A stretch of 64,000 bases of DNA from an uncultured Solirubrobacteraceae bacterium (GTDB lineage: Bacteria > Actinomycetota > Thermoleophilia > Solirubrobacterales > Solirubrobacteraceae), in assembly GCA_964588985.1 (NCBI GenBank), contig CAZPQW010000015.1:22128-86127 (forward strand), written 5' to 3'. Below are positions 38,044-62,465 of this stretch, piece by piece. The translations under genes and the position numbers were made by a program. How positions within the stretch are numbered: position 1 is the first letter of the stretch; each line of letters starts with the position of its first letter. A model generated the notes under the pieces. The model did not search any database. It was not told the DNA's origin and was given only the letters and a program-made list of their open reading frames with translations.

Positions 38044-38120
38044 TTTCGGTAGCTGGGCTGTCTCCGCTTGGGAGACCCCTGGCTTTGCGAGCCCGTCTCA
38101 CGACGGGTGTGCCTTTATCG
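38044..38120 (-). promoter_or_regulatory. Cyclic di-GMP-I (GEMM) riboswitch
   Basis: Minus strand reads GAUAAAGGCACA-CCCGUC-GUGA-GACGGG-CUCGCAAAGCCAGGG-GUCUCC-CAAGC-GGAGAC-AGCCCAGCUACCGAA: GGCA start, GNRA-capped P2, CGCAAAGCC junction, P3 and UACCG end; abuts the AAAGGA RBS. Confidence 0.9.
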
Positions 38121-38411
38121 AGGGGTGGGGATGGGGCTTTGCCGGTCGCCTATTGCTCTCTCTGCAAAAGCCCCCGAGAGCTTTAGGCCTGCAAGAGATC
38201 TCTCGGATCGGGACCTCCGAGCAGTGAACATGCGTCAGGGTGTTGGACGGATGTCACCAGCCGCGAGCAGCTGCCCGCCCATGCGCCGAGGCGCACGGGC
38301 GTCGTATCCGGTTCAAGTGGATCTGGCGCGCCGACGATGAGGATCGGGTGAGCGCGGCCGCAGCTATTCTGTTGATGGAGATGACACCGGCAGATACGCC
38401 CGAGGAGCCCC

Positions 38412-41514: not shown

Positions 41515-42613
41515 GCGCCTCGACCGAGTAGTTGCGCTCGACCTGGGCCCGCCCGTGCAGGCCGAGCTCCGGGGCGCCGTCGCGCAGCACAAGTACGAGC
41601 GCGGCCGCGAACGCGGTGGCGTCCTGCGCGATCAGGCAGTCCTCCCCGTCGTGCAGCTCGAGCCCGGCCGCGGCGCGCGCGGTGGCGATCACAGGCAGTC
41701 CGTGCGCGAGCGCCTCGATGAACTTCAACGGAGTGCCGCCTCCCTGCAGCAGCGGGACGACCGCGCACGAGGCGCTCGCGTAGGCCGCGTGCAGGTCGTC
41801 GACGAAGCCGAGGGTCTCCACACGCGGATCATTGGAGGGCGGCTGCTCGAGGCCCGCGCCCACCAGCGCCAGCCGCGCGTCGGGGATCGTGGCCCAGACC
41901 AGCGGGAAGACCTCGTCGAGCAGGAAGCGCAGGCCGCGCCGGTTCGGCTCGTAGGTGAAGCTCGCGACGAAGATCGCGCGTCGCTCGCCCGCGTTTGGCG
42001 TGACGGGCGCGATCGCCTGGACATCGACGACGTTGGGCACGTAGCGCAGGCGCGCGTCGGGGCACAGCTCGCGCGCGGCGGCGATCTCCGCGTGGCTGAC
42101 CATCCACGACTCGGCCGAGCGCTCCAGCAGCCGCCGCTCGAACGCGCGCAGCGAGTCGCGCTCGCGCGCGCCGCGGTCGGTGATCTCGTGGCGGAAGGAC
42201 GACTCGAGGTTGTGCGCGTTGTAGATCACCGGATGCGTCTCGGCGAGTCGCGCGAGCGCCGCCGCGGCTATCGGTCCGTCCGCGATCACGCGCCCGCGGT
42301 CGGGCGTGCGCGCAAGGCGGGCCGCTTCGGCCGCGAGCTCGCTGGAGATCCCGCGAGCGAAGCCGGCGGGCACGCCCGCGATACGGGCTTTCCCATACGC
42401 GAGGAGCCGCCGCGCGCCGCGCGAGGGCACGACCGGCAGTAGCTCGATGCCCGGGATCGACTGGAACGCGCTGTCGGGCTCGAGCGCGCCGAAGCGCGTG
42501 TAGAGCAGCGTCAGCCCGCCGTTCGCGGCGAGGGCTCGGGCGACGCCGTAGGTCCGCACCGCCTGACCGGAGTGCAGCACGGGCGTGTGGGTGGTGACGA
42601 GCAGGTCCTTCAC
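41492..42613 (-). CDS. Glycosyltransferase family 4
   Basis: HNLES, FTYEPN, GGGTPLKFIEALAHGLPV. Confidence 0.9.
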   Translation of the reverse strand: MKDLLVTTHTPVLHSGQAVRTYGVARALAANGGLTLLYTRFGALEPDSAFQSIPGIELLPVVPSRGARRLLAYGKARIAGVPAGFARGISSELAAEAARLARTPDRGRVIADGPIAAAALARLAETHPVIYNAHNLESSFRHEITDRGARERDSLRAFERRLLERSAESWMVSHAEIAAARELCPDARLRYVPNVVDVQAIAPVTPNAGERRAIFVASFTYEPNRRGLRFLLDEVFPLVWATIPDARLALVGAGLEQPPSNDPRVETLGFVDDLHAAYASASCAVVPLLQGGGTPLKFIEALAHGLPVIATARAAAGLELHDGEDCLIAQDATAFAAALVLVLRDGAPELGLHGRAQVERNYSVEALSALLER

Positions 42614-43800
42614 AGCGCCTGGATCGCCGCGGCGATCTCCTCGAGGCGTCGATCCCAGGACCTCGACGCGGCGGCCAGCGAACGCGCGGCTCGCCGCTCT
42701 GGGCTGTCCTCGGCGAGGGCCTCGTCGAGCAGCTCGGCGACCCCGGCCGCGTCGGGGGCGCTCGCGACATCGGTGACCTCCGCGAGCGCGGGCAGCGGGG
42801 TGGCGATGACCGGTAGCCCCGCCGCGAGGTACTCGTAGACCTTCATCGGGAAGATGCTCGCGGTGAGCTCGTTGCGCGCGTAGGGGATCAACCCGGCGTC
42901 GGCGGCTCGCAGTACGTCCGGCAGCTCGCGGTAGGCGCGGCCGCCGAGCAGGTGCACGTTCGGCTCGGCGCTCAGCGCGGAGACGTCGGTGTGGGGGTCG
43001 CCGAGGCCGATCGGCCCGACCAGCGCGAACGACCAGGACGGCCGCAGCCGCGCGAGCTCCACGAGCAGCGGGATGTCCAGCTTGACGGCCGAGATCGCGC
43101 CGGTGAAGACGATCCGCGGCGAGGGCAGCGCGGCCATCGCGGGATCGACCCGGGCGGGCGGGCTCGGCTGAAGCGCCGTCGCGAACAGCTCCGTGTCGGC
43201 GACGTTGGGCGCGTCGAGCACGTTGCTAGAGATCGTCCGCAGCCGCTCGGCGAGCGCGGGCGCGCTTGCGAGCACCAGATCCGCGCGCGCGGCGAACCGC
43301 GTCTCCGCGGCACGGAAGCTCGCGGTGTCGATGCGCTCGTGCGCGGCGATGTCGTCGACGCAGTGATAGATCACGAGCGAGGGGTCGAGCGGGTCGATCA
43401 AAACCTCCGCCTGGGGGACGTAAGCCCACAGGATCGGCCGCCGCAGCCCGAGCCCCCGCGCCGCGCGGCGGACGAGTGTGGGCAGCAGCCGCGCGTTGAG
43501 CGCACGCGCCACACGCGAGCCGTGCAGCGGCAGCACGAGCGGGGAGATCACGTGCAGTCCGTCGACCGCGCGCGGGGGCGCGAAGCCCCGTCGCAGTCGT
43601 CTCCAGATGCGCGACAGGTCGCGCCCGGCGAGCTGTGGCTTGCGCAGGCCGAGCGACTCGACGAACAGCACGCGGTTCTCATGCGCGAGCCGGGACATCA
43701 GGTGATGCTGGTTGGTCCACAGCTCCGTGTCCCAGTCGGCGAACCCGACGCACACGATGTCGCGGCCCTGGAGACGTGGGGTTTCGCCCATCGGCGTCAT
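42610..43800 (-). CDS. GT-B glycosyltransferase (TuaH-like)
   Basis: TNQHHLM, YHCVDD, PMKVYEYLAAGLPV; start at ATG 43800 or 43791, inside the direct repeat. Confidence 0.9.
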   Translation of the reverse strand: MTPMGETPRLQGRDIVCVGFADWDTELWTNQHHLMSRLAHENRVLFVESLGLRKPQLAGRDLSRIWRRLRRGFAPPRAVDGLHVISPLVLPLHGSRVARALNARLLPTLVRRAARGLGLRRPILWAYVPQAEVLIDPLDPSLVIYHCVDDIAAHERIDTASFRAAETRFAARADLVLASAPALAERLRTISSNVLDAPNVADTELFATALQPSPPARVDPAMAALPSPRIVFTGAISAVKLDIPLLVELARLRPSWSFALVGPIGLGDPHTDVSALSAEPNVHLLGGRAYRELPDVLRAADAGLIPYARNELTASIFPMKVYEYLAAGLPVIATPLPALAEVTDVASAPDAAGVAELLDEALAEDSPERRAARSLAAASRSWDRRLEEIAAAIQAL

Positions 43801-43835
43801 GATCTCAGGCTGGGTAGTCTCGTGACGGTGATCCA
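43785..43835 (+). repeat. 51-bp direct repeat, left copy
   Basis: CGCCCATCGGCGTCATGATCTCAGGCTGGGTAGTCTCGTGACGGTGATCCA, identical to 50481-50531. Confidence 0.97.
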
Positions 43836-43869
43836 CGGCGACTGGCGCAGGTAGCAAGCGCCACATGTC

Positions 43870-44403
43870 TCACGCTTTCTCGCTGATGGGGTTCTCCAGC
43901 GCGCCGGAGAACCGCTCGACAAGGACGAGTGAGACCGCAAGACCGATGACGACGGCCCCGTTGACGCCGAGCTCCATGAGGGCGATGTGGATCGTCGCCG
44001 CACCAGCGTCATGCTCGCCACTCTGCATCGACAGATGCGCGCCGACCGACAGTATCTCGCGCACGACGCTGATGATCCCGACCCTGAGAAACGGCCCCAG
44101 CTTGAGCCCGTCGCAGTCATGGACCATCACCGTGCGGACGACGTCAATGATGACGATCGCGAAAAGTCCACGGTTTACGGCCGAGATGGCGGCCTGAGCG
44201 AAGGCTTCTTTCGGATTCACCAGATCACAGATGGTGTGGTAGAGGACCGCCCCCGCGACGATCATCAGGACGATGACCACGAACACGTGGATGAGATCTT
44301 CCGCGATCTCCAAGGCACTCTTCTGAATCTTGTCCATCACCGAGCCGCGATTGGCGTCGCCGATGCCCGGTCTTGTCGGGAATATGGCCTCTCTTATGAT
44401 CAT
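43870..44403 (-). CDS. PsiE-family membrane protein
   Basis: PFLRVGIISVVREIL motif, 4 TMs; true start may be ATG 44337. Confidence 0.8.
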   Translation of the reverse strand: MIIREAIFPTRPGIGDANRGSVMDKIQKSALEIAEDLIHVFVVIVLMIVAGAVLYHTICDLVNPKEAFAQAAISAVNRGLFAIVIIDVVRTVMVHDCDGLKLGPFLRVGIISVVREILSVGAHLSMQSGEHDAGAATIHIALMELGVNGAVVIGLAVSLVLVERFSGALENPISEKA

Positions 44404-44813
44404 TGCGCACCCCTATGGTTGGTTCGGTGATCCCGGTGGGTCACCGCTTGTCTGGTGGACCTGCGGCTGTTCGCCGAGTACCAGACTCCCTCCCGAGGGC
44501 GCCGCTTGCCAGCCACCCTGGGGTGAAAGAAGGGACACCCTGAGCAGGCTTGGGGTCGGAAGACGATGGCTGCTTCTCCCTACCAGGGTGACTATCCGTG
44601 CTGGAACGGTCGCCGCAGGCGCGTCGTGGTTGGCCTAGTAGGGCGGCCCAAGGTGTCGCTGCTCTAACCCTAGGGTGTGTGGTGTCGTCGGGCGCGGTTC
44701 GGGACGATCGATGTGATCAGCCCGATGGGTCAACTCAAGACGAAAGATGTTGACTATGAGCGCTGCGTGTGAAGGGCGAGGCGTCGGTCATGTCGCAGTG
44801 GAGGAGGTGTGAG

Positions 44814-45548
44814 ATGGGCTACTCGATCTTGGCAGTCCGTACGTCCGATGACGATGACGGACGTCTCCATCCGGCGCTGTCGGACGGGCACACGATGGTC
44901 CTCGAGCCTCTGGACGGAGCACCCTCGTGGGTGCACGCGAGGGGGCTCATCGTTAGCGAGATGGTCGCCGACGGATTGAGGACTCACCTCCGAATCGGGA
45001 ACGTCAAGGTGGACGTCATGATCAGCGACGCCCGTTTGGCGGTCGGCTGCGTCAACTTCGACAGCGGTGAGCAAAGGAGCCCGGGAATCCGAACGGCCAT
45101 CCTTGTCAAGAGCCTTGGCAGCGTTACCCCTGACGACGGCGCCGGCTACGGCAGGATGCTCGTCGGGCATGTTCGCTATCCGTGGCTGCGCTGCGTGGGG
45201 TTCAAACCGAGAACGGGCTGGCGGTCCAGGGACGAACTGCGGCTGGGGGTGGTCGCAAGGGCACCCGACGGCGATGAGCGGGAACTCTTCCTCGACGTGC
45301 AGCTTCCCAGGGGTGTCGACTCAGCCAGCCTAGCGCGGAGCGTTGTCGCGAAGGCCGCGCGCTATCACCTCGCGTACAGCGAGGTCACGGACGAGGTAGA
45401 GCGAGACAGCTATGAGCACCTTGCGGAAGGCCCACGTCTGGCGCCCGCGGGTCCCACGGAGTTCGCGCTCTATCGGCTCCCCAGCGCATCATTCGTCAGT
45501 GCCATCTCTGCCTACCCTCCACCGATCGTGCCCGCTGAGGTGGAGTAG
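44814..45548 (+). CDS. Hypothetical protein
   Basis: GGAGGAGG RBS before ATG 44814; LVGHVRYPWL motif. Confidence 0.7.
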   Translation: MGYSILAVRTSDDDDGRLHPALSDGHTMVLEPLDGAPSWVHARGLIVSEMVADGLRTHLRIGNVKVDVMISDARLAVGCVNFDSGEQRSPGIRTAILVKSLGSVTPDDGAGYGRMLVGHVRYPWLRCVGFKPRTGWRSRDELRLGVVARAPDGDERELFLDVQLPRGVDSASLARSVVAKAARYHLAYSEVTDEVERDSYEHLAEGPRLAPAGPTEFALYRLPSASFVSAISAYPPPIVPAEVE

Positions 45549-45628
45549 CGCAGCATCCCCGACCTGGTCGGACTTCCAGAAGATGGAACCGCACGCGGTC
45601 TGGCAGACTATGTGTCGATCGGCTCGGC

Positions 45629-46333
45629 ATGGCTTCTCGACCTCAAGACGACGGCGACCCCCTGGCGCCACACACGCTCTCAGCAGCAGAGTTGAAAGAC
45701 CTGCTTGGCGCTGAACGCGCTGGCGATCCATTCTTCGCATACCGAGACGAGCTGGGGCTACTGCGGATATTTCCCGCCAGCCCGTCCGAGCGTCCGTACA
45801 CGCTGGGGCGCGGCTCGGAAATGGACCTGGCCGTCACCTGGGACGCGGAGGTGTCTGGCATACACGCCGAGATCCAGTGCTTCGGTGAGGAGGTGACGAT
45901 CATCGACGATGGCCTCTCCACGAACGGGACCTATGTGAACGGGCAGAGAGTGACAGGCCGCGCGCGACTGCGTGATCGCGACCGCATTCGCCTCGGGCGC
46001 ACTGCACTCGCCTACAGGAGCGGGTCACGCTCGCAGGCGCTCGCAACCATCGCGGCGAAGGACGCACCTAGCCTGTTGAGGTTGACGGACATGCAGCGGA
46101 GCGTCCTCGTTGCGCTGTGCAGGCCCTTGCGTGACGATGCGGCATTCGTGACGCCCGCAACCAATCAGCAGATCGCCTCGGAGGTGTATCTGAGCATCGA
46201 CGCCGTGAAGATGCACCTGCGCAACCTGTTCACTAAGTTCGGACTCGGTGCGCTACCTCAGAATCAGAAGCGGGCCAAGCTTGCCGAGCACGCGATGCAA
46301 CTCGGCCTTGTAACACCAAGGGATCTGGCATGA
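45629..46333 (+). CDS. FHA-domain protein with C-terminal LuxR-like HTH
   Basis: FHA motifs LGR, VSGIHA, STNGTYVNG; HTH TNQQIASEVYLSIDAVKMHLRNLFTKFG. Confidence 0.88.
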   Translation: MASRPQDDGDPLAPHTLSAAELKDLLGAERAGDPFFAYRDELGLLRIFPASPSERPYTLGRGSEMDLAVTWDAEVSGIHAEIQCFGEEVTIIDDGLSTNGTYVNGQRVTGRARLRDRDRIRLGRTALAYRSGSRSQALATIAAKDAPSLLRLTDMQRSVLVALCRPLRDDAAFVTPATNQQIASEVYLSIDAVKMHLRNLFTKFGLGALPQNQKRAKLAEHAMQLGLVTPRDLA

Positions 46334-46743
46334 GTGTGCCACCGAGGACGGCCCTTGTGACGCGATGGCAGCTCGATCGTAGGAGGCTGTCGTCAGTAGT
46401 CCTGCCGGCCATCCTGGCGGCGGCACTCATCGGCTTCGGAGTCGGTTCCATCGCGAATCCGAGCGCTTCGCTGCGCGCCGCGCCGGCGCTTGCGCCTGCC
46501 CGAGCCACGGGCAGCGTCAGAATCCCAGCTCTGACACCGGTAGTCCCAGTGCCGTCCCTACGCCGACGACCGACGTCTCCCGCACGACGTGTGGGAGGTG
46601 GCTTCCCACTCGCTGCCTCGCGGCAGGCGACGACGCCCCCACCTGGTGGCTCGTCCTCGGGCGGGACGACGACGAGCGCTGGCTCCAAGCCTTCTGGTCG
46701 TGAAGAAAGCGGTGGTTACCACCAGGAAAGCGGCGGCGGTTAA
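46330..46743 (+). CDS. Small membrane-anchored Pro/Gly/Ser-rich protein
   Basis: ATGA overlap with the FHA gene; one TM followed by a low-complexity tail. Confidence 0.55.
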   Translation: MSVPPRTALVTRWQLDRRRLSSVVLPAILAAALIGFGVGSIANPSASLRAAPALAPARATGSVRIPALTPVVPVPSLRRRPTSPARRVGGGFPLAASRQATTPPPGGSSSGGTTTSAGSKPSGREESGGYHQESGGG

Positions 46744-46773
46744 GGACACCGCTGAGACGACTCCCGCGACTAT

Positions 46774-48753
46774 CTAGCTCGAGGAGCCAAGCTGCGCAAG
46801 CGTCACCTGTAGCGCAGCAGCCGATGCCGAGACGGTGCGCGCCCCGGCTTCGTAGGCAGCCGCACGGGCATCGTGTGCTGCGGTGCTCATCTGCTCATAG
46901 CCGCTCGCCATCCGGTCGAGCGCGCTGGCGAGCACCCTATTGGAGGCGCTTTCGGAAGGTCCAGGTCTTGCGGCTCGCAACGCCGCTGCAGCATGCCCAG
47001 CTACCTCGCCGAGGCGCCTAGCAGCTGCGGCCTGCGCCGGTGCGCTTTGGGCGCGAGCCAGTCGCCCACTGAAGCCGGATCGTTCGCTATTGAAGTCGTT
47101 GAAGACCTTGGCGAGCGCTGTCACGTAGCGCACGCTTCGATCGATCGGCAGCGCGTGGGCGTTGGCCAGCGTGAGCGTCCTGAGGATCTGCTCGCAGCCG
47201 ACGCTCACCGCTGTGCTCGCGTGGGTGGGAAGCTGGCAGACCCCCGCCAGCACTCCAGTTGTGGTCGGTTGGGTGTAGAGGGTGGCATTGCCGGCATGGC
47301 CGCTCAGCACCACGTCTGGGTAGCGGAAGAACGCCTTCCCGCTCGGCGAGATCGATTCCCTGATCGGTTCGGAGTGGTCGAGGCTCGTCAGGCTTGCCGG
47401 CAGTAGAGCGGCGCTCGCGGCCGAAGAGAGGCCGAGGGTGAGCGAGCCATCGTGGTGGGGCGAGACAAACGTGAGGGGCGTGGAGATCTTGTAGCCTGGA
47501 GTCGGATTGGGGGTGCTGGCCATTCGCCACCCGGCGGGCAGAGAGAGGGTGACGCCGGAGGATGCGACTCTCGTGCCAGATGCGCTCGACGTGGCGCCGT
47601 GGACTGCCCGAGCAACCGCGAAGCCGGCGGCTGCCACCAGGACGAGGCCCATGAGCGCCGCCAGCCGCAGGCGCGCCCTACGCGGCTGTCGTCGCGGCTG
47701 TCCAAGACGTTGCGTGTTGGCGGATTGAAGCGTGTCCTTGGAGTGGACATCTAGCGTGGTAACGGTCTGCAAGGTGATCTGCTGGCTGGTGAAGTAAGTC
47801 GGGGTCGGTGTCTCGGGGGCGGGGTCAGGGTCGGTTATGTCGATGAGGCGGGCGTCTCGGCGCCATCTCGGGCCGAGCATCCCGATCACGATCTCCTCCA
47901 ACTCCTCCCAGGCTGTGACAGCGCTGGATATGCGTTCGGATGGCTCCCTGACAAGCAGTCGTGTGACCCAACTGGAGAGGGCACGATCCACCGTCGTGTC
48001 CACGTCAGCAGGGGCGGGAATAGGATCGTTGATGCGTCGAAGCAACATGCCCATCGGCGAGGACGTGTCGTGGAACGGCACGTATCCGAGCAGGTACTCA
48101 TACGCCATTACGCCGACCGAGTAAAGATCCGTCCAGGGTCCGACCTCTTCGCAGAGAGCCTGCTCGGGGGCCATATATGCTGGCGTCCCCACTGTCACTC
48201 CGCCCGTGCTTGACGCGAGCCCGTGTATGCCCGCCGCCTGCGTCGCCTTGGCGATCCCGAAGTCGGCGATCTTGACGCGACCCTCGTCCGTCACCATGAT
48301 GTTCTCGGGCTTGAGGTCGCGGTGAACGATGCCCCGAGGTGCGACGGCCCCAAGGCCTGCCAGCAGTCCCTCGAGTACCCCAGCAAGCTGGGGTAGCGAC
48401 AGATAGCCCATCCACAGCCGTAGGGAGCCTCTCGCTACGTACTCCATTGCGATATAGGAGGTTCCGGCCTCTCCGAGGTACTCGTACACGGTGACGATGT
48501 TCGGATGGTTGAGCGAGCCGGCGAGTCGCGACTCCGACACGAGTGCCAGGCCGGTACCCGTGGAGAGTCCGTCGGGTCCGTGTAGTGCCTTCAGTGCAAC
48601 CTTGCGCTCGAGATCGCGCTGTCGGGCTAGGTAGACGACCCCCGTGCCGCCGCGGCCAATCTCGCTCAGGATCTCGTACTTTCCAACAGTCGCGCCGACC
48701 ATCGACTCGACTAGTACAGCGTCAGCGGTATCCCAGCCTGTCGATTCAGCCAC
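46774..48753 (-). CDS. Hanks-type Ser/Thr protein kinase with TM and extracellular domain
   Basis: GRGGTGVV, VALK, HRDLKPEN, DFG, GTPAYMAPE; TM near residue 370. Confidence 0.95.
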   Translation of the reverse strand: MAESTGWDTADAVLVESMVGATVGKYEILSEIGRGGTGVVYLARQRDLERKVALKALHGPDGLSTGTGLALVSESRLAGSLNHPNIVTVYEYLGEAGTSYIAMEYVARGSLRLWMGYLSLPQLAGVLEGLLAGLGAVAPRGIVHRDLKPENIMVTDEGRVKIADFGIAKATQAAGIHGLASSTGGVTVGTPAYMAPEQALCEEVGPWTDLYSVGVMAYEYLLGYVPFHDTSSPMGMLLRRINDPIPAPADVDTTVDRALSSWVTRLLVREPSERISSAVTAWEELEEIVIGMLGPRWRRDARLIDITDPDPAPETPTPTYFTSQQITLQTVTTLDVHSKDTLQSANTQRLGQPRRQPRRARLRLAALMGLVLVAAAGFAVARAVHGATSSASGTRVASSGVTLSLPAGWRMASTPNPTPGYKISTPLTFVSPHHDGSLTLGLSSAASAALLPASLTSLDHSEPIRESISPSGKAFFRYPDVVLSGHAGNATLYTQPTTTGVLAGVCQLPTHASTAVSVGCEQILRTLTLANAHALPIDRSVRYVTALAKVFNDFNSERSGFSGRLARAQSAPAQAAAARRLGEVAGHAAAALRAARPGPSESASNRVLASALDRMASGYEQMSTAAHDARAAAYEAGARTVSASAAALQVTLAQLGSSS

Positions 48754-48837
48754 GTCTGACGGACCATTGTGAGCGACACGCGACGCACGGAGCCAGGCGA
48801 TTGGCTGCGTCTGAGATCGTAGCGGTGATCGTAAGCG

Positions 48838-50328
48838 TCAGCAGTGGGTGGGTTGTGTCGAGTTTGGGGCCAGGCATGTTTGCGTGTGCCGCGGGTTCCG
48901 CCCGGCGCGTAGGGTGAAGGTGTACAGCCGTCCGACCCAGCCGGCCTTGACGACTCGTACCGAGATAATCAGTCCGCCTGGAAGGTGATGGCCTTTGAAC
49001 AAGTGCGCCAGATCCACGTGGGTGGAGTGTCCACAGCCATGAGATCGGCACGACGTCCTTTGAGCCCCCGGAGTGACGCGCTTGCTTGCCAATGGGCAAC
49101 CGCGTCCCCGGCAGACGACTTCTACATAGCCTCCGGGAGGTATTCCTAGGACCTGGAGCGATTGGACCTTCGTCCACGAGCCAGTGGTCGACCACCCGAA
49201 TGTCCATTCCATGGATGCTCCCACCCGCGCTCCGACTTCCGCTGATGGCGCCGACATCGCAGTCGTGCTCCCGGTGGCGTTACTGGCGATTACGACCGCG
49301 CGCAGGCTGTGGCCCACATAGGCACTGGTCAAGGTGAGTATCGCGCCGGTGGCGCCGCTGATGTTGTTGCAGGCGTTGCCTCCCCGGTTGCAGAGCTGCC
49401 ACTCGTAGGTGTAGCTGGTCGGTCCGCCCTGCCATGCGCCCAGCGAGGCGGCCAGGTCATCGCCCACGATGGCCGTGCCGGAGATCGACGGAGGTGAGGT
49501 GTTGAGAGGATGCGTGGGGGTACCGGGCGGTGGTTCTGGTTTGTGCGGTCCTTCTACCGGAGGTTCTTCTTCCGGAATCCGGAGGATCGCCTCGCTCGCC
49601 GTCCAGGACGCCGCGCTTTCTCCGGAGGAGGCCACGGCGCCGACGCCGACAAAGACTTTTTCTTTGGCTGGTATGAACGGCAGCTTCGTCGGATCGGGCT
49701 TGAAGCTCTGGGGGTCGACGCCAAGCGCCTGCCAGAAATACTTGGTGATGCGCCCTTCCGTATTGCGCGGAAGGTTCGACACAGCGATCTCATAGCCCCA
49801 CTCGCCGTCGTCTACGGATGTCCAGGAAATCGACTCGTTATCCGCGGACAGCGTCAGGGCGGTCGGTGGTTCTAGTATGAGCCCAGTCGGGGTCACTGCC
49901 ACCTCGTTGGTCGACCATTCTTCCGGGCTCGTGTGCGGGGACGACAAAGGCCCAATGCCCACAAACACTTTGCCCTTGATCGGCGTGAAGTCCAGGGCTT
50001 TGGCGTCCGGTGTGTACGTCTGCGGGTTGGCGGCGACGGCCTGTTCGAAGTAGTCCGTTTTGCGACCTGGAGCATTGCGTGGAAGGTTCGAGACTGCGAT
50101 CCTGTATCCCCACTCCGATTGGAGCGAGGACCACTGCACTGTGTTGCCGTTCGCGGTGATTTCAAACGGAGGGAACGCCTGTGCCTTGGCAGCGCTCAGC
50201 AGGAGGGTCGCTACTGCGAGAAGCAATGCGAAGAAGCCCCTGATTTGCGCAGGGCGGACGGCATCATAAGCGCGATCGATTGATTGCGCCGAGGTGCCAT
50301 ATGATTTTGGATACCGGTCAAAGTCCAA
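48838..50328 (-). CDS. Secreted protein with a duplicated about 100-aa module and an Ig-like domain
   Basis: Signal peptide; WGY.IAVSNLPRN...KVFVG.G twice; PSISG...YEWQLC Ig-like domain; AAGGGGG RBS. Confidence 0.75.
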   Translation of the reverse strand: MDFDRYPKSYGTSAQSIDRAYDAVRPAQIRGFFALLLAVATLLLSAAKAQAFPPFEITANGNTVQWSSLQSEWGYRIAVSNLPRNAPGRKTDYFEQAVAANPQTYTPDAKALDFTPIKGKVFVGIGPLSSPHTSPEEWSTNEVAVTPTGLILEPPTALTLSADNESISWTSVDDGEWGYEIAVSNLPRNTEGRITKYFWQALGVDPQSFKPDPTKLPFIPAKEKVFVGVGAVASSGESAASWTASEAILRIPEEEPPVEGPHKPEPPPGTPTHPLNTSPPSISGTAIVGDDLAASLGAWQGGPTSYTYEWQLCNRGGNACNNISGATGAILTLTSAYVGHSLRAVVIASNATGSTTAMSAPSAEVGARVGASMEWTFGWSTTGSWTKVQSLQVLGIPPGGYVEVVCRGRGCPLASKRVTPGAQRTSCRSHGCGHSTHVDLAHLFKGHHLPGGLIISVRVVKAGWVGRLYTFTLRAGRNPRHTQTCLAPNSTQPTHC

Positions 50329-50480
50329 GAGTCCCCCTTGCTACTGAGCGCGCGTAGTCTACTCATTGATCAGCAAACGTCAACATCACGAATTTGCGCG
50401 GGCGTGACGAGAGCGCTAGGACCGCCGATGTCCGGTGGGTGATCTTGCCTGAGCGTCTCCAAATCGAGTCCAGAGCACCG

Positions 50481-50531
50481 CGCCCATCGGCGTCATGATC
50501 TCAGGCTGGGTAGTCTCGTGACGGTGATCCA
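50481..50531 (+). repeat. 51-bp direct repeat, right copy
   Basis: Identical to 43785-43835. Confidence 0.97.
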
Positions 50532-51531
50532 AGGCGATGAGGCCCGCACCGCGCGGCTGCTGTTCGACAGGGAGCTGACCGCCGGTACCCTCGCGCCGGG
50601 AGCTTTGAGCACGCGAGCCGTACGAGGCGCGACGCGCGTGCGCCCCGTTCCGCCGCGTGCGCTGCGCGTGGCCGGGCAGGTGCGCTACAAGCTCGGCAGG
50701 CTGGACTTCGAGTCGGCGGTGATGGAGCCGCTGATGGCCGCGCGCCGAGCCGCGCTCGGACACGAGGCCGCGGGAGCGCCGCCGCGGTTCCTCGTGCGGG
50801 TCGACGAGTTCCCGCACTTCCAGGCGTGGGACGACCCCGGGCGGTTCGGCACCGAGCGCTACGAGCGCTTCCACGAGTCGATGTTCGCCGCCGGCCTGCC
50901 ATATCTGGTCGCGGTGCTCCCGCGCGTGAGTCGCGAGCCACTCGTGCCGGCGGGCAGGGAGTCGCGGCCGCTCGACGACGGCGAGCTCGAGATGCTGCGC
51001 CGTATCCCCTCCGAGGGGGTGTCCTTCGGGTTGCACGGGCTCGATCACCGCACGCGCTTCGAGTCCCCGCACCACCACTCCGAGCTGTGCGGGCTCGGCG
51101 CGGCCGAGACCGAGGAGCTGCTCGACCGCGCGCTCGGGGAGCTCGCTCCGCACGGGATCAGGCCGGACGTGTTCGTGCCCCCATACAACCGCTTCGACGC
51201 GGGCCAGTTCGAGGCCCTGGCACGCCGCTTCCAGGTCGTGTGCGGCGGGCCGGAGTCGATCGGCACGATGGGCTTCCACAGCACGCCGCAGTGGCGCGGG
51301 GAGACGGTGTACCTGCCGTCCTACCTGCCGGTGTATGGGAGGGCGGCCGAGGTGCTGCCCGCGGCGAAGCGCGCGATCGAGCTGGAGGCGGGTATATGGA
51401 TTCCGATCGTGCTGCACTGGGGCTGGGAGATGGGCGACGAGTGGGAGGCGCTGAGGCGCCTGGCGGAGCTGATCGCTCCGTACGCCGCGACGTGGGAGGA
51501 CTTCCAGCAGGCGATCGAGCGCAGCCGATGA
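50518..51531 (+). CDS. Polysaccharide deacetylase-like protein (DUF2334/NodB fold)
   Basis: RVDEF, LHGLDH, FVPPYN, VLHW; start may be GTG 50524 (7 nt after TAGTCT). Confidence 0.8.
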   Translation: MTVIQGDEARTARLLFDRELTAGTLAPGALSTRAVRGATRVRPVPPRALRVAGQVRYKLGRLDFESAVMEPLMAARRAALGHEAAGAPPRFLVRVDEFPHFQAWDDPGRFGTERYERFHESMFAAGLPYLVAVLPRVSREPLVPAGRESRPLDDGELEMLRRIPSEGVSFGLHGLDHRTRFESPHHHSELCGLGAAETEELLDRALGELAPHGIRPDVFVPPYNRFDAGQFEALARRFQVVCGGPESIGTMGFHSTPQWRGETVYLPSYLPVYGRAAEVLPAAKRAIELEAGIWIPIVLHWGWEMGDEWEALRRLAELIAPYAATWEDFQQAIERSR

Positions 51532-57892: not shown

Positions 57893-58016
57893 CCGCCGCG
57901 GACAAGATGCCTCCGGGCAAGAGGCCTCTATATCTAAAGAGGTGCACAAAGATCTGTCGACCTTGAAGCGGCATCTCCGCGTATGCAAGAACGACGGGCG
58001 GTCTGCTCATCCTCGG

Positions 58017-58412
58017 GTGCGCCGCGGCGCGGCGTCGCTCGCCGATCTCAGCCAGACGATTGCGGAGGATCTCGAGCAGGGTCGGGAAGCCGATGCGTTG
58101 CGATTGCTTTTCGGATTCGCCGACGACTTCAGGGGATCGTCGCGCTCTGGTCAGATGTTGCTTCTACGAGACGAGCCTCTGAGTACAGGCGACGCACGTT
58201 TCGATGCAGCGCTGGCCGGCGTCGCCGAGCTGTTCGCGGCCGAGGGCGGTCTCGCGGCGCCAGCGTGGGTGAACGGAGCCGATCGCTTCGTCGAGCCCTG
58301 GTGGTTTGTCGCGAGCAGGCCTGCGTTCCACGCGTACACGCTCGCGCATACGCCAGCGGTGCTTGCGCGTCATGGGGTGTTCATGGCGCGTGAGGTGTTC
58401 GATCGTGTCTGA
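58017..58412 (+). CDS. Antitoxin-like protein (C-terminal domain only; no N-terminal HTH seen)
   Basis: EP..TGD.RFDAALAG.AE, P.W, TP..LARHGVF pattern recalled from partners of DUF6036-like nucleotidyltransferases; start uncertain. Confidence 0.55.
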   Translation: MRRGAASLADLSQTIAEDLEQGREADALRLLFGFADDFRGSSRSGQMLLLRDEPLSTGDARFDAALAGVAELFAAEGGLAAPAWVNGADRFVEPWWFVASRPAFHAYTLAHTPAVLARHGVFMAREVFDRV

Positions 58413-58515
58413 GGAGGTCATCGCTCTCGTCAAGCACATGTATCCGCTCCAGGAGCCGTCGCCCAAGACGCGGTTCTTCCTCGAAGAGATCCTCGGCGCG
58501 GGTCGGCCCGACTAG
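58405..58515 (+). pseudogene. Remnant of a nucleotidyltransferase-type toxin (internal deletion)
   Basis: GTG overlapping the upstream stop, then only 36 aa (VSEEVIALVKHMYP...PKTRFFLEEIL) resembling a DUF6036-like C-terminus. Confidence 0.5.
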
Positions 58516-60437: not shown

Positions 60438-60505
60438 GTGCGGATCGAGCCGCCGTCTCACGTCCCTCGGCCGTCGAGATAATCTAGCCTTGTAGGTGTC
60501 GCCCT

Positions 60506-60545
60506 GGAGGGGTGGCAGAGCGGTTGAATGCGGCGGTCTCGAAAA
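60506..60545 (+). pseudogene. 5' half of host tRNA-Ser(CGA), truncated after the anticodon loop (putative attL)
   Basis: GGAGGGGTGGCAGAGCGGTTGAATGCGGCGGTCTCGAAAA followed by non-tRNA sequence (no T arm, no acceptor 3' strand); TAGCCT box upstream. Confidence 0.85.
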
Positions 60546-60854
60546 TCGGGTGCGCCAAAAGTTCGCAACTTCGAGCCATGGCGGCATTTCTGGCTTTCCT
60601 GAGCCGTTTTCCGCATGGTTGAGCGGGATTCGGGCGGTGTTTGCTGGTGGGGTTTGGAAGCTGCGAGACCGCTGGAAACCGCCTGAGACCGCTCAGTCCG
60701 CGGTTGGACTGGCGCGAGTTTGGCGCGAGAACTGGTCGTTGGGTTGAGGGTTTGCCGCCGCGGACTGGTTGCGGCAAACGGCCGATGGGGCAGCTCATCA
60801 TTTGCCGGTGCGCCGGTGTTTCGGATGGGCTGCGGGACTGGCGTAAAGCTGGAA

Positions 60855-60944
60855 CGGAGGGGGGGAGATTCGAACTCCCGGTACGCCAATCAGACGCACA
60901 ACGCTTTTCGAGAGCGCCGCATTCAACCACTCTGCCACCCCTCC
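60855..60944 (-). tRNA. Complete tRNA-Ser(CGA), 90 nt with long variable arm
   Basis: Acceptor GGAGGGG/CCCCTCC plus G discriminator, anticodon arm GCGCT-CTCGAAA-AGCGT, T arm GGGAG-TTCGAAT-CTCCC; TACCAT box upstream. Confidence 0.93.
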
Positions 60945-60960
60945 AGAAAATGGATGGTAG

Positions 60961-61085: not shown

Positions 61086-62465
61086 ATGGTTGACACCGGT
61101 TTTGCGTCGGCGGCGGCGCTGCAGTTCGATGGATCGAGCCCTGCTGTTGCGTTGTGGCGGCTCGTTGGCGCCCTGACAGCCGAGCAGGCCCAAATCCTTG
61201 CGGGCGAGATCAAGCTGCTGGCGGGTGCGGCGTGGCCGGAGCAGCCATCCGGGCCGTCTCGTTCGCGGCTCGCGAAGGGCGTGAGGGAGAGGCACTCCCG
61301 ATGGTGTCCGAGCTACCACGATGAGGCGTGCGTGTGTTCCCCGCGGTGGGAGGCATGGGTGTACTCGCGCAACGACAGGGGCAAGATTCGAAAGACGTTC
61401 CCTGAGCGCTGGGAAGCGAAGGCTTGGCGTCACGAGCAGCTCGAGCTGGCGAGCATCGACCGGCTGCGAGCCCCGAGCCGTCTCTCGCTTGCCGAGGCAG
61501 GTTCGCGGTGGGTCGAGATGGCCCGCGACGGGCAGATACGCAATCGCTCGGGGCGACGCTATAAGCCGAGCGCGCTACGCACGATCGAGACCGACCTACG
61601 TCTACACCTTGCCCCGAGGCTCGGCACAAGGAGCATGGTCGGGGTCACGCGTGCGGATCTTCAGCGGCTTGTTGGTCGCTGGCTGGCCGCGGGGAGGAGC
61701 CCGAGCAAGATCCGGTCGATCATCAACGCCGCACGAGTGCTCTGGCGAGACCTGGATCTCATCACCGGGCACGACAACGAGCTGCTCATCGACCCGACCC
61801 GTGGTCTACGTCTTCCGGCGAGTACGGGGCGACGCGAACGGATCGCGACCCCCGATGAAGCCCGCAGGCTGATCGAGGCGCTCCCGCCGAGGGATCGTGC
61901 TCTGTGGGCAACCGCGATGTATGCAGGGCTGCGCCACGGCGAGCTACGCGCCCTACAAGTCCGCGACATCGACCTCAAGCGACGCCGCATCAACGTGAAG
62001 CGGGGCTGGGATCAGTACGAGGGCGAAATCGACCCCAAGAGCGAAAAGGGCACCCGCTCCACGATCATCACTAGGCCCCTGCTCGACCTTCTCGCGATGC
62101 ACCTGGGAGACGCCGGCCACGAGAACACCGACCTCGTATTCGGACGGACACAGACGAAGCCGTTCCAGAGCAACACCGTCAACAAGCGAGCCCGGAGGGC
62201 GTGGGTCACAGCGCGCAAGCGGGAAGACCGCCAGGACATGCTCCCGATGGCACAACGGCTCCGCGAGATCGGGCTGCAGGAGTGCCGCCACACCGCCGCC
62301 TCGCAGATGCTCGATGCCGGGATCCCGATCGACAAAGTCAGCAAGTTCATGGGACACGCCTCGATCACCATCACCATCGACCGGTACGGACACCTACTCC
62401 CCGGAGGCGAAGCCGACGCCACGGCTCTTCTCGACGCTTATCACCAGCGACACGAAGTTCCGTAG
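61086..62465 (+). CDS. Tyrosine recombinase / phage-type integrase
   Basis: AGLRHGEL, PKS, QECRH, MGH, DRYGHL; N-terminal H/C cluster (RHSRWC...CVC); start uncertain. Confidence 0.93.
   Translation: MVDTGFASAAALQFDGSSPAVALWRLVGALTAEQAQILAGEIKLLAGAAWPEQPSGPSRSRLAKGVRERHSRWCPSYHDEACVCSPRWEAWVYSRNDRGKIRKTFPERWEAKAWRHEQLELASIDRLRAPSRLSLAEAGSRWVEMARDGQIRNRSGRRYKPSALRTIETDLRLHLAPRLGTRSMVGVTRADLQRLVGRWLAAGRSPSKIRSIINAARVLWRDLDLITGHDNELLIDPTRGLRLPASTGRRERIATPDEARRLIEALPPRDRALWATAMYAGLRHGELRALQVRDIDLKRRRINVKRGWDQYEGEIDPKSEKGTRSTIITRPLLDLLAMHLGDAGHENTDLVFGRTQTKPFQSNTVNKRARRAWVTARKREDRQDMLPMAQRLREIGLQECRHTAASQMLDAGIPIDKVSKFMGHASITITIDRYGHLLPGGEADATALLDAYHQRHEVP

Follow-up and report, generated by a model that had tools for sequence, protein, structure and literature searches.

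How can new DNA enter the narrow space between two back-to-back promoters and leave both of their genes whole? The locus that raises this question lies in a 64,000-nucleotide (nt) stretch of contig CAZPQW010000015.1 from an uncultured Solirubrobacteraceae bacterium (hereafter the window), in which an island of signalling-type genes separates a leftward glycosyltransferase (GT) gene from a rightward DUF2334 gene. The island is bordered by direct repeats at 43785-43841 and 50481-50537, each of which holds the region between the two genes and both of their starts. The evidence set out below makes it very probable that the island is an insertion accompanied by a long target duplication, one that carries no restriction genes.

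A divergent promoter pair is repeated at both ends of the island

The two repeat copies match at 56 of 57 base pairs (bp), the first 51 of them exactly. They are spaced 6696 bp apart, with 6639 bp of DNA between them, and the island has a GC content of 63.7%, compared with 71.2% and 71.5% in the 5-kb flanks. A blastn-short search of the genome that holds the window (G000, an assembly of 3.41 Mb in 48 contigs) found no third copy, the next best match being 16 nt. Within the repeat lie the leftward ATG (43791), a GATCAT hexamer on the same strand (43804-43799), a rightward TAGTCT hexamer (from 43815 in the left copy and 50511 in the right) and two in-frame GTGs. It takes in a compact promoter pair and reaches 7 nt into the left gene and 14 nt into the right one. 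The features at the two ends are as follows.

43785..43841, no strand: left copy of the 57-bp duplicated target, from sequence comparison; putative working leftward promoter and start, spare rightward promoter
50481..50537, no strand: right copy of the 57-bp target; putative rightward promoter in use (TAGTCT 50511-50516) with its start, together with a spare leftward promoter; derived C>A at 50532
43799..43807, minus strand: TGn plus GATCAT, the leftward gene's extended -10-like element, 7 nt upstream of ATG 43791; putative function, from the motif survey
42610..43791, minus strand: host glycosyltransferase of the GT4 family (Pfam PF13692/PF00534), probably leaderless from ATG 43791; start from the hexamer spacing found at 85/90 loci
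50524..51531, plus strand: host DUF2334 protein (PF10096, E 1e-14), which we take to be deacetylase-like, probably leaderless from GTG 50524; hexamer spacing found at 50/63 loci
43828..43854, plus strand: inward stub open reading frame (ORF) of 8 codons behind the spare TAGTCT at 43815-43820; equal in length in metagenome contig L058
50416..50487, minus strand: inward stub ORF of 23 codons from the spare leftward ATG, on the strand of the last cargo gene

The promoter assignments come from a survey of 90 loci chosen by their GT coding sequence, the window's own included. A GATCAT-like motif with TGn is present on the minus strand at 86 loci, and a start codon follows 6-9 nt downstream at 85. 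On the plus strand, 63 loci carry a TANNCT hexamer, followed 7 nt later by a start codon in 50 of these. The hexamers are separated by 10 nt in only 7 of the 61 loci that have both motifs and by at least 16 nt in the remainder. Mycobacterial promoters have been described, in the part of that work considered here, as having a -10 motif of the form TANNNT with a TGN extension and as lacking a conserved -35 element (PMC3898074). From the motifs and their spacing we infer that the repeat probably consists of two overlapping, leaderless promoters, and that translation probably begins at ATG 43791 and at GTG 50524 rather than at the first GTG (50518). A longer GT ORF called from 43866 begins within the island, and the real start is probably elsewhere.

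Much of this had been anticipated by a sequence-only reading of the window, which described exact 51-bp repeats extendable to 56 of 57, two start codons and a -10 box inside them, an inward stub at each copy and an island devoid of recombinase or transposase. The repeats are as described, and the genome-wide search it proposed found only the two copies in G000. Among 53 stop-to-stop island frames of at least 70 amino acids, none has a Pfam match to any family of recombinases, transposases, nucleases or methyltransferases. Nor do the two ends of the island have a terminal inverted repeat in common, the best match being 9 of 25 at offsets from -6 to +6. Both starts and the -10 box do lie in the repeat; placing the rightward start at the first GTG is probably wrong, the second, 7 nt after the hexamer, being likelier. 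The stub frames likewise stand, with the corrections that, counted from the second GTG, the left stub is 8 codons long and the real protein begins M-I-Q-G-D.

The sole mismatch between the copies is at 50532, within the real rightward gene, where 11 of 13 sites in other records have C. The A in the window is thus the derived state, and the duplication was a perfect 57 bp at its origin.

Related genomes hold empty sites, the same island and an unrelated cassette

A search with the compact-promoter pattern returned 10 loci in 9 genomes; a further 5 came from metagenomes, of which L057, a chance match in unrelated DNA, was dropped. A pattern search missed the second repeat copy in a filled genome, G190, and counts made in this way can fall short where copies have drifted. 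The 13 compact sites in other records comprise 11 empty ones, one with the same island (L058) and one with an unrelated cassette (G190). The empty sites come from species other than the window's own, and the genomes that share the site are labelled Solirubrobacteraceae and Solirubrobacterales. At two of them (L056 and L060), the junction is exactly that predicted by removal of the island. The empty site that the sequence-only reading expected in relatives therefore exists, and its view of a harmless insertion with both flanking genes intact agrees with the sequence.

In metagenome contig L058, both the island and its left junction recur at about 90% identity; as this is an independent contig, misassembly is unlikely. 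Between G000 and L058, third codon positions are 75-82% identical and the island spacer 82%, and the left repeat copies differ at 1 of 57 positions. With this much divergence, the island predates the split of the two lineages.

The cassette in G190, a single-contig genome, is a second, independent insertion at the same site. It consists of 722 bp with RHH_1 and PIN genes (site L050/L051, with identical cassettes) between 53-bp repeats that match at 50 positions. Relative to the G000 repeat, that of G190 begins 2 nt further left and ends 6 nt earlier. The two G190 copies share alleles that are absent from G000, one of which occurs at none of the other sites; the G000 copies match each other. 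Each genome's copies thus carry its own alleles, and each duplication was therefore copied in place from the host target. Two of the three G190 mismatches fall in spare halves, one of them within a spare hexamer. In both genomes, the spare leftward promoter is directed into the cargo in the sense orientation. In the minus-strand promoter copy at L051:7254-7330, the stub frame from the spare GT start is 19 codons long and ends in a stop that overlaps the GTG at which the RHH gene likely starts; this overlap could reflect translation coupling or chance.

Two copies were seen neither at the 60 further loci, taken with 8 kb of flank, nor in the 50 genomes with longer-spacer promoters. A general hot spot is unsupported: with the window case removed, the excess in the compact class is not significant (1/11 versus 0/50, Fisher P 0.18), and kin are not independent. 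No viral contig was found to carry the site core. Two further genomes, G019 (L002/L190) and G121 (L191), have related inserts of 50-70 nt between the two -10 hexamers, with few bases repeated; these may be either a third insertion or an older filled state that has eroded to a scar.

Both cargos occur elsewhere without the repeat

All five cargo genes of the island recur in genome G365 (43-81% amino-acid identity), where they keep their order and orientation and follow a histidine-kinase-like gene. This locus is unrelated to the promoter site and its edges share repeats of only chance level (11-15 nt); the homologous promoter of G365 is single-copy and on a different contig. For the RHH-PIN cassette, a long flanking repeat is found at G190 only, 1 of the 30 best loci. 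The other 29 score at most 14, the maximum of 116 mixed-pair controls.

In a tree of 26 of the 30 cassette loci (four partial loci excluded), the cassettes of G190 and G124 are sisters, with 93.3% identity and a support of 0.995. Among ten genomes compared, G124 is also the closest to G190 for GT, GT2 and the deacetylase-like gene (91.7, 91.4 and 89.1%), but not for the next GT (83.1%). Its cassette lies directly after GT2, in the orientation seen in G190 and 2.4 kb from a single-copy, empty promoter, a position that likely shows the source copy of the G190 cassette. The G190 order can be derived from that of G124 by one replication event with two template switches and loss of the old copy; it can also be derived by a tandem duplication and two deletions. 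A search for a shared motif beside RHH-PIN cassettes gave scattered matches only and no repeat family. The fold-back hairpin at a G190 junction is 5 bp (chance of at least 5 bp 0.017 per junction, over 4 junctions), which is not significant.

Sequencing runs and the stability of the island

The stretch is present in 23 sequencing runs, 17 of them with at least half its words; all are DNA, represented as contigs, and four were examined. In run X7, one contig of 1051 nt joins 43784 to 50481 with no differences, and the island is absent from it; 51 letters fit either side of the join, which may be an assembly-graph artefact. The run assemblies presumably use words shorter than 51 letters. In X7, island contigs match the flanks in depth (7-10). 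Coverage there is thin over the leftmost 1.7 kb of the island, a hole that proves nothing, as no more than about 87% of the run was covered. The right junction is crossed by contigs of X19 and X20, and X22, at about 91% identity, has the right half of the island. No circle junction is listed among the contigs of the four runs. The island is apparently a stable passenger.

An artefact of assembly is scarcely credible as the origin of the whole structure. G000 is in 48 contigs, an exact 51-bp repeat exceeds common assembly words, and no single contig in the four runs spans the island. The left junction nonetheless recurs in the independent contig L058 at about 90% identity, the right junction is crossed by contigs in two of the four runs, with the right half of the island also held in X22, and an analogous structure is present in the single contig of G190.

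Host copying or repair as the favoured mechanism

We lean, with modest confidence, towards a copying or break-repair event with a template switch at the promoter pair. The target would be a compact pair of back-to-back, probably leaderless promoters with -10 hexamers 10 nt apart. Copying or break repair would run through the promoter and a few codons and then switch to cargo DNA; on resuming upstream of the promoter, it would copy the 57 bp a second time. Such an insertion would survive, as both neighbouring genes retain a complete promoter and a start codon, and selection for intact promoters and starts would explain why the boundaries of two independent events are nearly equal, just inside both starts. 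Loss by recombination between the repeats would be possible, but one-way, and would leave both promoters unchanged.

This reading builds on the repeat itself, the empty sites, copies that carry their own genome's alleles, two unrelated cargos at one site and the lack of repeats around both cargos elsewhere; the enzymes, the activity of the promoters and the part played by selection are what we infer from them. That unrelated cargo was inserted in the same way in a related species hints that the host's own DNA copying makes such repeats. A second case with own-allele copies is found within G000 (C21:31412-32786, L196), where a 1.3-kb insert with an AAA ATPase gene lies between 39/40-bp repeats of a gene 3′ end. 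No integrase is present, the site is empty in three of five close genomes (G289, G372 and G414), and both G000 copies share an allele that is 3 bp shorter.

A bolder extension is that overlapping leaderless promoters are cargo-independent landing sites, at which host template switching copies the 53-57-bp pair around any DNA, whether local or foreign, with no recombinase or nuclease. We regard this as possible but rather unlikely. If true, G190 and G124 would capture donor and product next to each other, and this mode of insertion would be a process of host replication or repair; in the boldest form, the spare inward promoters would be kept active and the island would still loop out in living populations.

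Several observations weigh against a simple copying scar. No nearby source copy of the window island was found, and the FHA-HTH gene of the island is unmatched in four of five close genomes, which are 50-83% complete. The direction of the move between G190 and G124 is unpolarised. The spare halves in G000 are unchanged, for which the probability under neutral decay is about 0.002-0.15, depending on the assumed rate and the number of free sites. This lack of drift points to constraint or homogenisation, which a simple scar does not explain; it could be accounted for by promoter overlap, by inward promoters that are active, by gene conversion or by recurrent excision and reinsertion. The genomes G019 and G121 tolerate an insert of 50-70 nt between the hexamers with no long duplication, weakening the argument from selection. 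Finally, the contig with the island-free flank junction could be an assembly artefact.

Alternatives to a template switch

The repeats might instead be the remnant of a larger tandem duplication, comprising promoter, neighbours and cargo, in which deletions trimmed the redundant genes to the promoter limits. Tandem duplication followed by recombination has been put forward as an alternative route to interrupted direct repeats (PMC3457768, in the part considered here). The gene orders fit: one tandem duplication and two deletions would turn that of G124 (deacetylase, promoter, GT, GT2, cassette) into that of G190 (deacetylase, promoter, cassette, promoter, GT, GT2) with no change of orientation, and erosion to functional limits would explain the similar boundaries. 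We nevertheless consider it unlikely, as it requires three events rather than one or two, G190 retains no cassette remnant after GT2, no local ancestral copy of the window island was found and none of the 13 compact sites shows an intermediate with a longer stub. Appreciably less probable still is that the 57 bp are the core of attL and attR sites, used by a site-specific recombinase acting in trans or since lost, with an element that excises and reintegrates. The repeats are near-perfect despite their age, L058 shares the left junction and one contig has the empty junction; moreover, the recombinase matches in G000 number 13 of the tyrosine type, one of them next to tRNA-Ser at a distance of about 11 kb, and one of the serine type, and this genome contains several tRNA-end islands with 42-48-bp repeats. 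Against an att core stand the differing boundaries (57 versus 53 bp) and unrelated ends of the two events, the own-allele copies and cargo that occurs elsewhere without the core (G365 and 29 of 30 cassette loci). The site is single-copy in 50/50 longer-spacer genomes and filled at 0/60 further loci; there is no viral match, no listed circle junction and no recombinase in the element. Mobilisation in trans as a defined element, which the sequence-only reading had suggested, is not supported, the repeat being absent around the cargos elsewhere, differing between the two events (57 and 53 bp) and carrying host alleles.

That reading had also raised a switch of capsule gene expression. As a regulatory device, excision or the spare inward promoters would alter expression of polysaccharide genes or cargo, in keeping with spare halves conserved beyond neutral DNA, a spare leftward promoter pointing in sense into the cargo in both G000 and G190, and a cluster whose c-di-GMP-I riboswitch marks a regulated locus. 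We think this very improbable. Each host gene has the same hexamer and start whether the site is filled or empty, both overlapping promoters are present on each copy, such that any competition between them is kept, and two of the three G190 mismatches lie in spare halves, one inside a spare hexamer. Both cargos have promoter-like sites of their own, and no way back after excision was found. The capsule switch is thus unsupported and was rejected from the sequence, because both genes keep their promoters in either state; nor do the two DNA states yield a different promoter or frame, as would be expected of phase variation. A regulatory switch is probably unimportant here, and a template switch during host copying or repair remains our preferred account.

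Genes of the island and its surroundings

The island's cargo comprises the following predicted genes.

43870..44403, minus strand: PsiE-like membrane protein, a weak assignment (PF06146 in Pfam at E 0.09, short of the cut-off); also found in L058 and G365
44814..45548, plus strand: 244-amino-acid protein with a predicted PH-like fold (predicted structure, pLDDT 87)
45629..46333, plus strand: regulator with an FHA domain (PF00498, E 9e-17) and a LuxR-type HTH (PF00196, E 1e-4, below cut-off)
46330..46743, plus strand: 137-amino-acid ORF overlapping the FHA-HTH stop, with no family match; may not be a gene
46774..48753, minus strand: Ser/Thr protein kinase (PF00069, E 1e-43) with a hydrophobic segment and a C-terminal domain; start uncertain
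48838..50328, minus strand: Ig-like repeat protein (weak PF23197), probably secreted, judging from a hydrophobic N-terminal stretch

A promoter scan placed a promoter-like site for the Ig-like gene at 50383-50356. The 244-amino-acid protein has 21 sequence matches, itself counted. Its Foldseek matches are weak, none reaching E<=0.001, and mostly to PH/PTB domains; those of its atlas neighbours that have a family are PH-like (0.85-0.87). Neither Foldseek nor Pfam indicated likeness to a nuclease or recombinase, and no viral contig was found to encode a relative. Some part of the island is matched in 120 of 401 genomes of the genus, a tally that includes the unpublished genome G057.

The flanks form an exopolysaccharide or capsule-type cluster with GT4 glycosyltransferases, an O-antigen-ligase-like gene, a chain-length/ATPase gene and the DUF2334 gene. 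Upstream of a 637-amino-acid ORF in this cluster lies a c-di-GMP-I-GGC riboswitch (38044-38122, minus strand; Rfam RF03167, 66.8 bits) that is kept in relatives. A 25-bp repeat around a GT gene of G078 (L115) was set aside, as its motif is found in several genomes and it is probably no target duplication. This short motif recurs in intergenic DNA of the cluster (L115/G078, L032, L073, L098 and L120), twice around the GT gene in G078, and may be a small dispersed repeat. Further along the window, a region of short ORFs with no Pfam match (57954-58413) is variably present in relatives and looks like an accessory module. Near tRNA-Ser(CGA) (60504-60548, 60854-60945), an inverted 45-nt partial copy lies about 300 nt off, also in relatives, and a tyrosine recombinase gene adjoins the tRNA at about 61848-62396.

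Elsewhere in G000, a 9.3-kb defence-like island (C23:21750-31065) has perfect 33-bp repeats resembling a gene 3′ end, its empty site not being cleanly shown. Toxin-antitoxin-like modules at C1:75490-77833 lie between 81-bp repeats (89%), and a 1.5-kb insert at C18:30740-32331 lies between 52/53-bp repeats that resemble what we take to be the 3′ end of RNase P RNA with its terminator; no integrase was seen in either.

Comparison with known systems

Integrase-driven islands that replace gene 5′ ends, such as the dusA-associated islands and SXT/R391 at prfC, also keep the gene intact and leave a stub, and they carry their own integrase and a fixed attP core. The window island differs from them in having no integrase, variable boundaries and a repeat made of host alleles. 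IS1549 is an insertion sequence with long, variable target repeats. Like it and IS1630, the island has a long, variable target duplication made in place; unlike them, it has no transposase or terminal inverted repeats. The target repeats of IS1630 are 19-26 bp (PMC2853133, in the sections considered here).

The closest likeness is to the insertions with long target duplication surveyed by Furuta et al. 2010, described in the sections of that survey considered here as shorter than 20 kb, with more than 30 bp duplicated, no other mobile elements and repeats that often span start or stop codons (PMC2853133). The mode has been recognised for other DNAs as well, according to the part of a later source considered here (PMC3457768). 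As in that class, the window island has no mobility gene, its 6639-bp insert and genome-unique 57-bp duplication fall within these limits, relatives have the empty site, the repeats span translation starts with the genes left intact, and duplication length varies (57 bp in G000, 53 bp in G190 and 40 bp at the other G000 site) (PMC2853133). The Furuta cases, as set out in those sections, carry restriction-modification genes, for which a property such as double-strand breakage was suggested (PMC2853133). Unlike this restriction-linked subset, neither cargo here has a recognised restriction-modification gene or DNA nuclease.

For the origin of such insertions, the 2010 survey, in the same sections, only suggested breaks by restriction cargo (PMC2853133). 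Two cargos at one 57-bp site, neither with a DNA nuclease that was recognised, with no repeat elsewhere and, for one, a likely source 2.4 kb away in a close genome, favour a host process, and the locus offers a small, defined substrate on which this could be tested. It is also an example of genes entering a closely packed divergent promoter with neither gene broken. Literature searches, which left aside the supplements of PMC2853133, found no paper on a duplicated divergent promoter. The locus differs from the cases in the sections of that survey considered here in that its target comprises two overlapping divergent promoters and two starts, and in that two independent events share one site, one with a likely source 2.4 kb away in a close genome (PMC2853133). 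New at this locus are a target made of two promoters, the arrival of two independent cargos at a single site and a close genome in which the likely source of one cargo can be seen.

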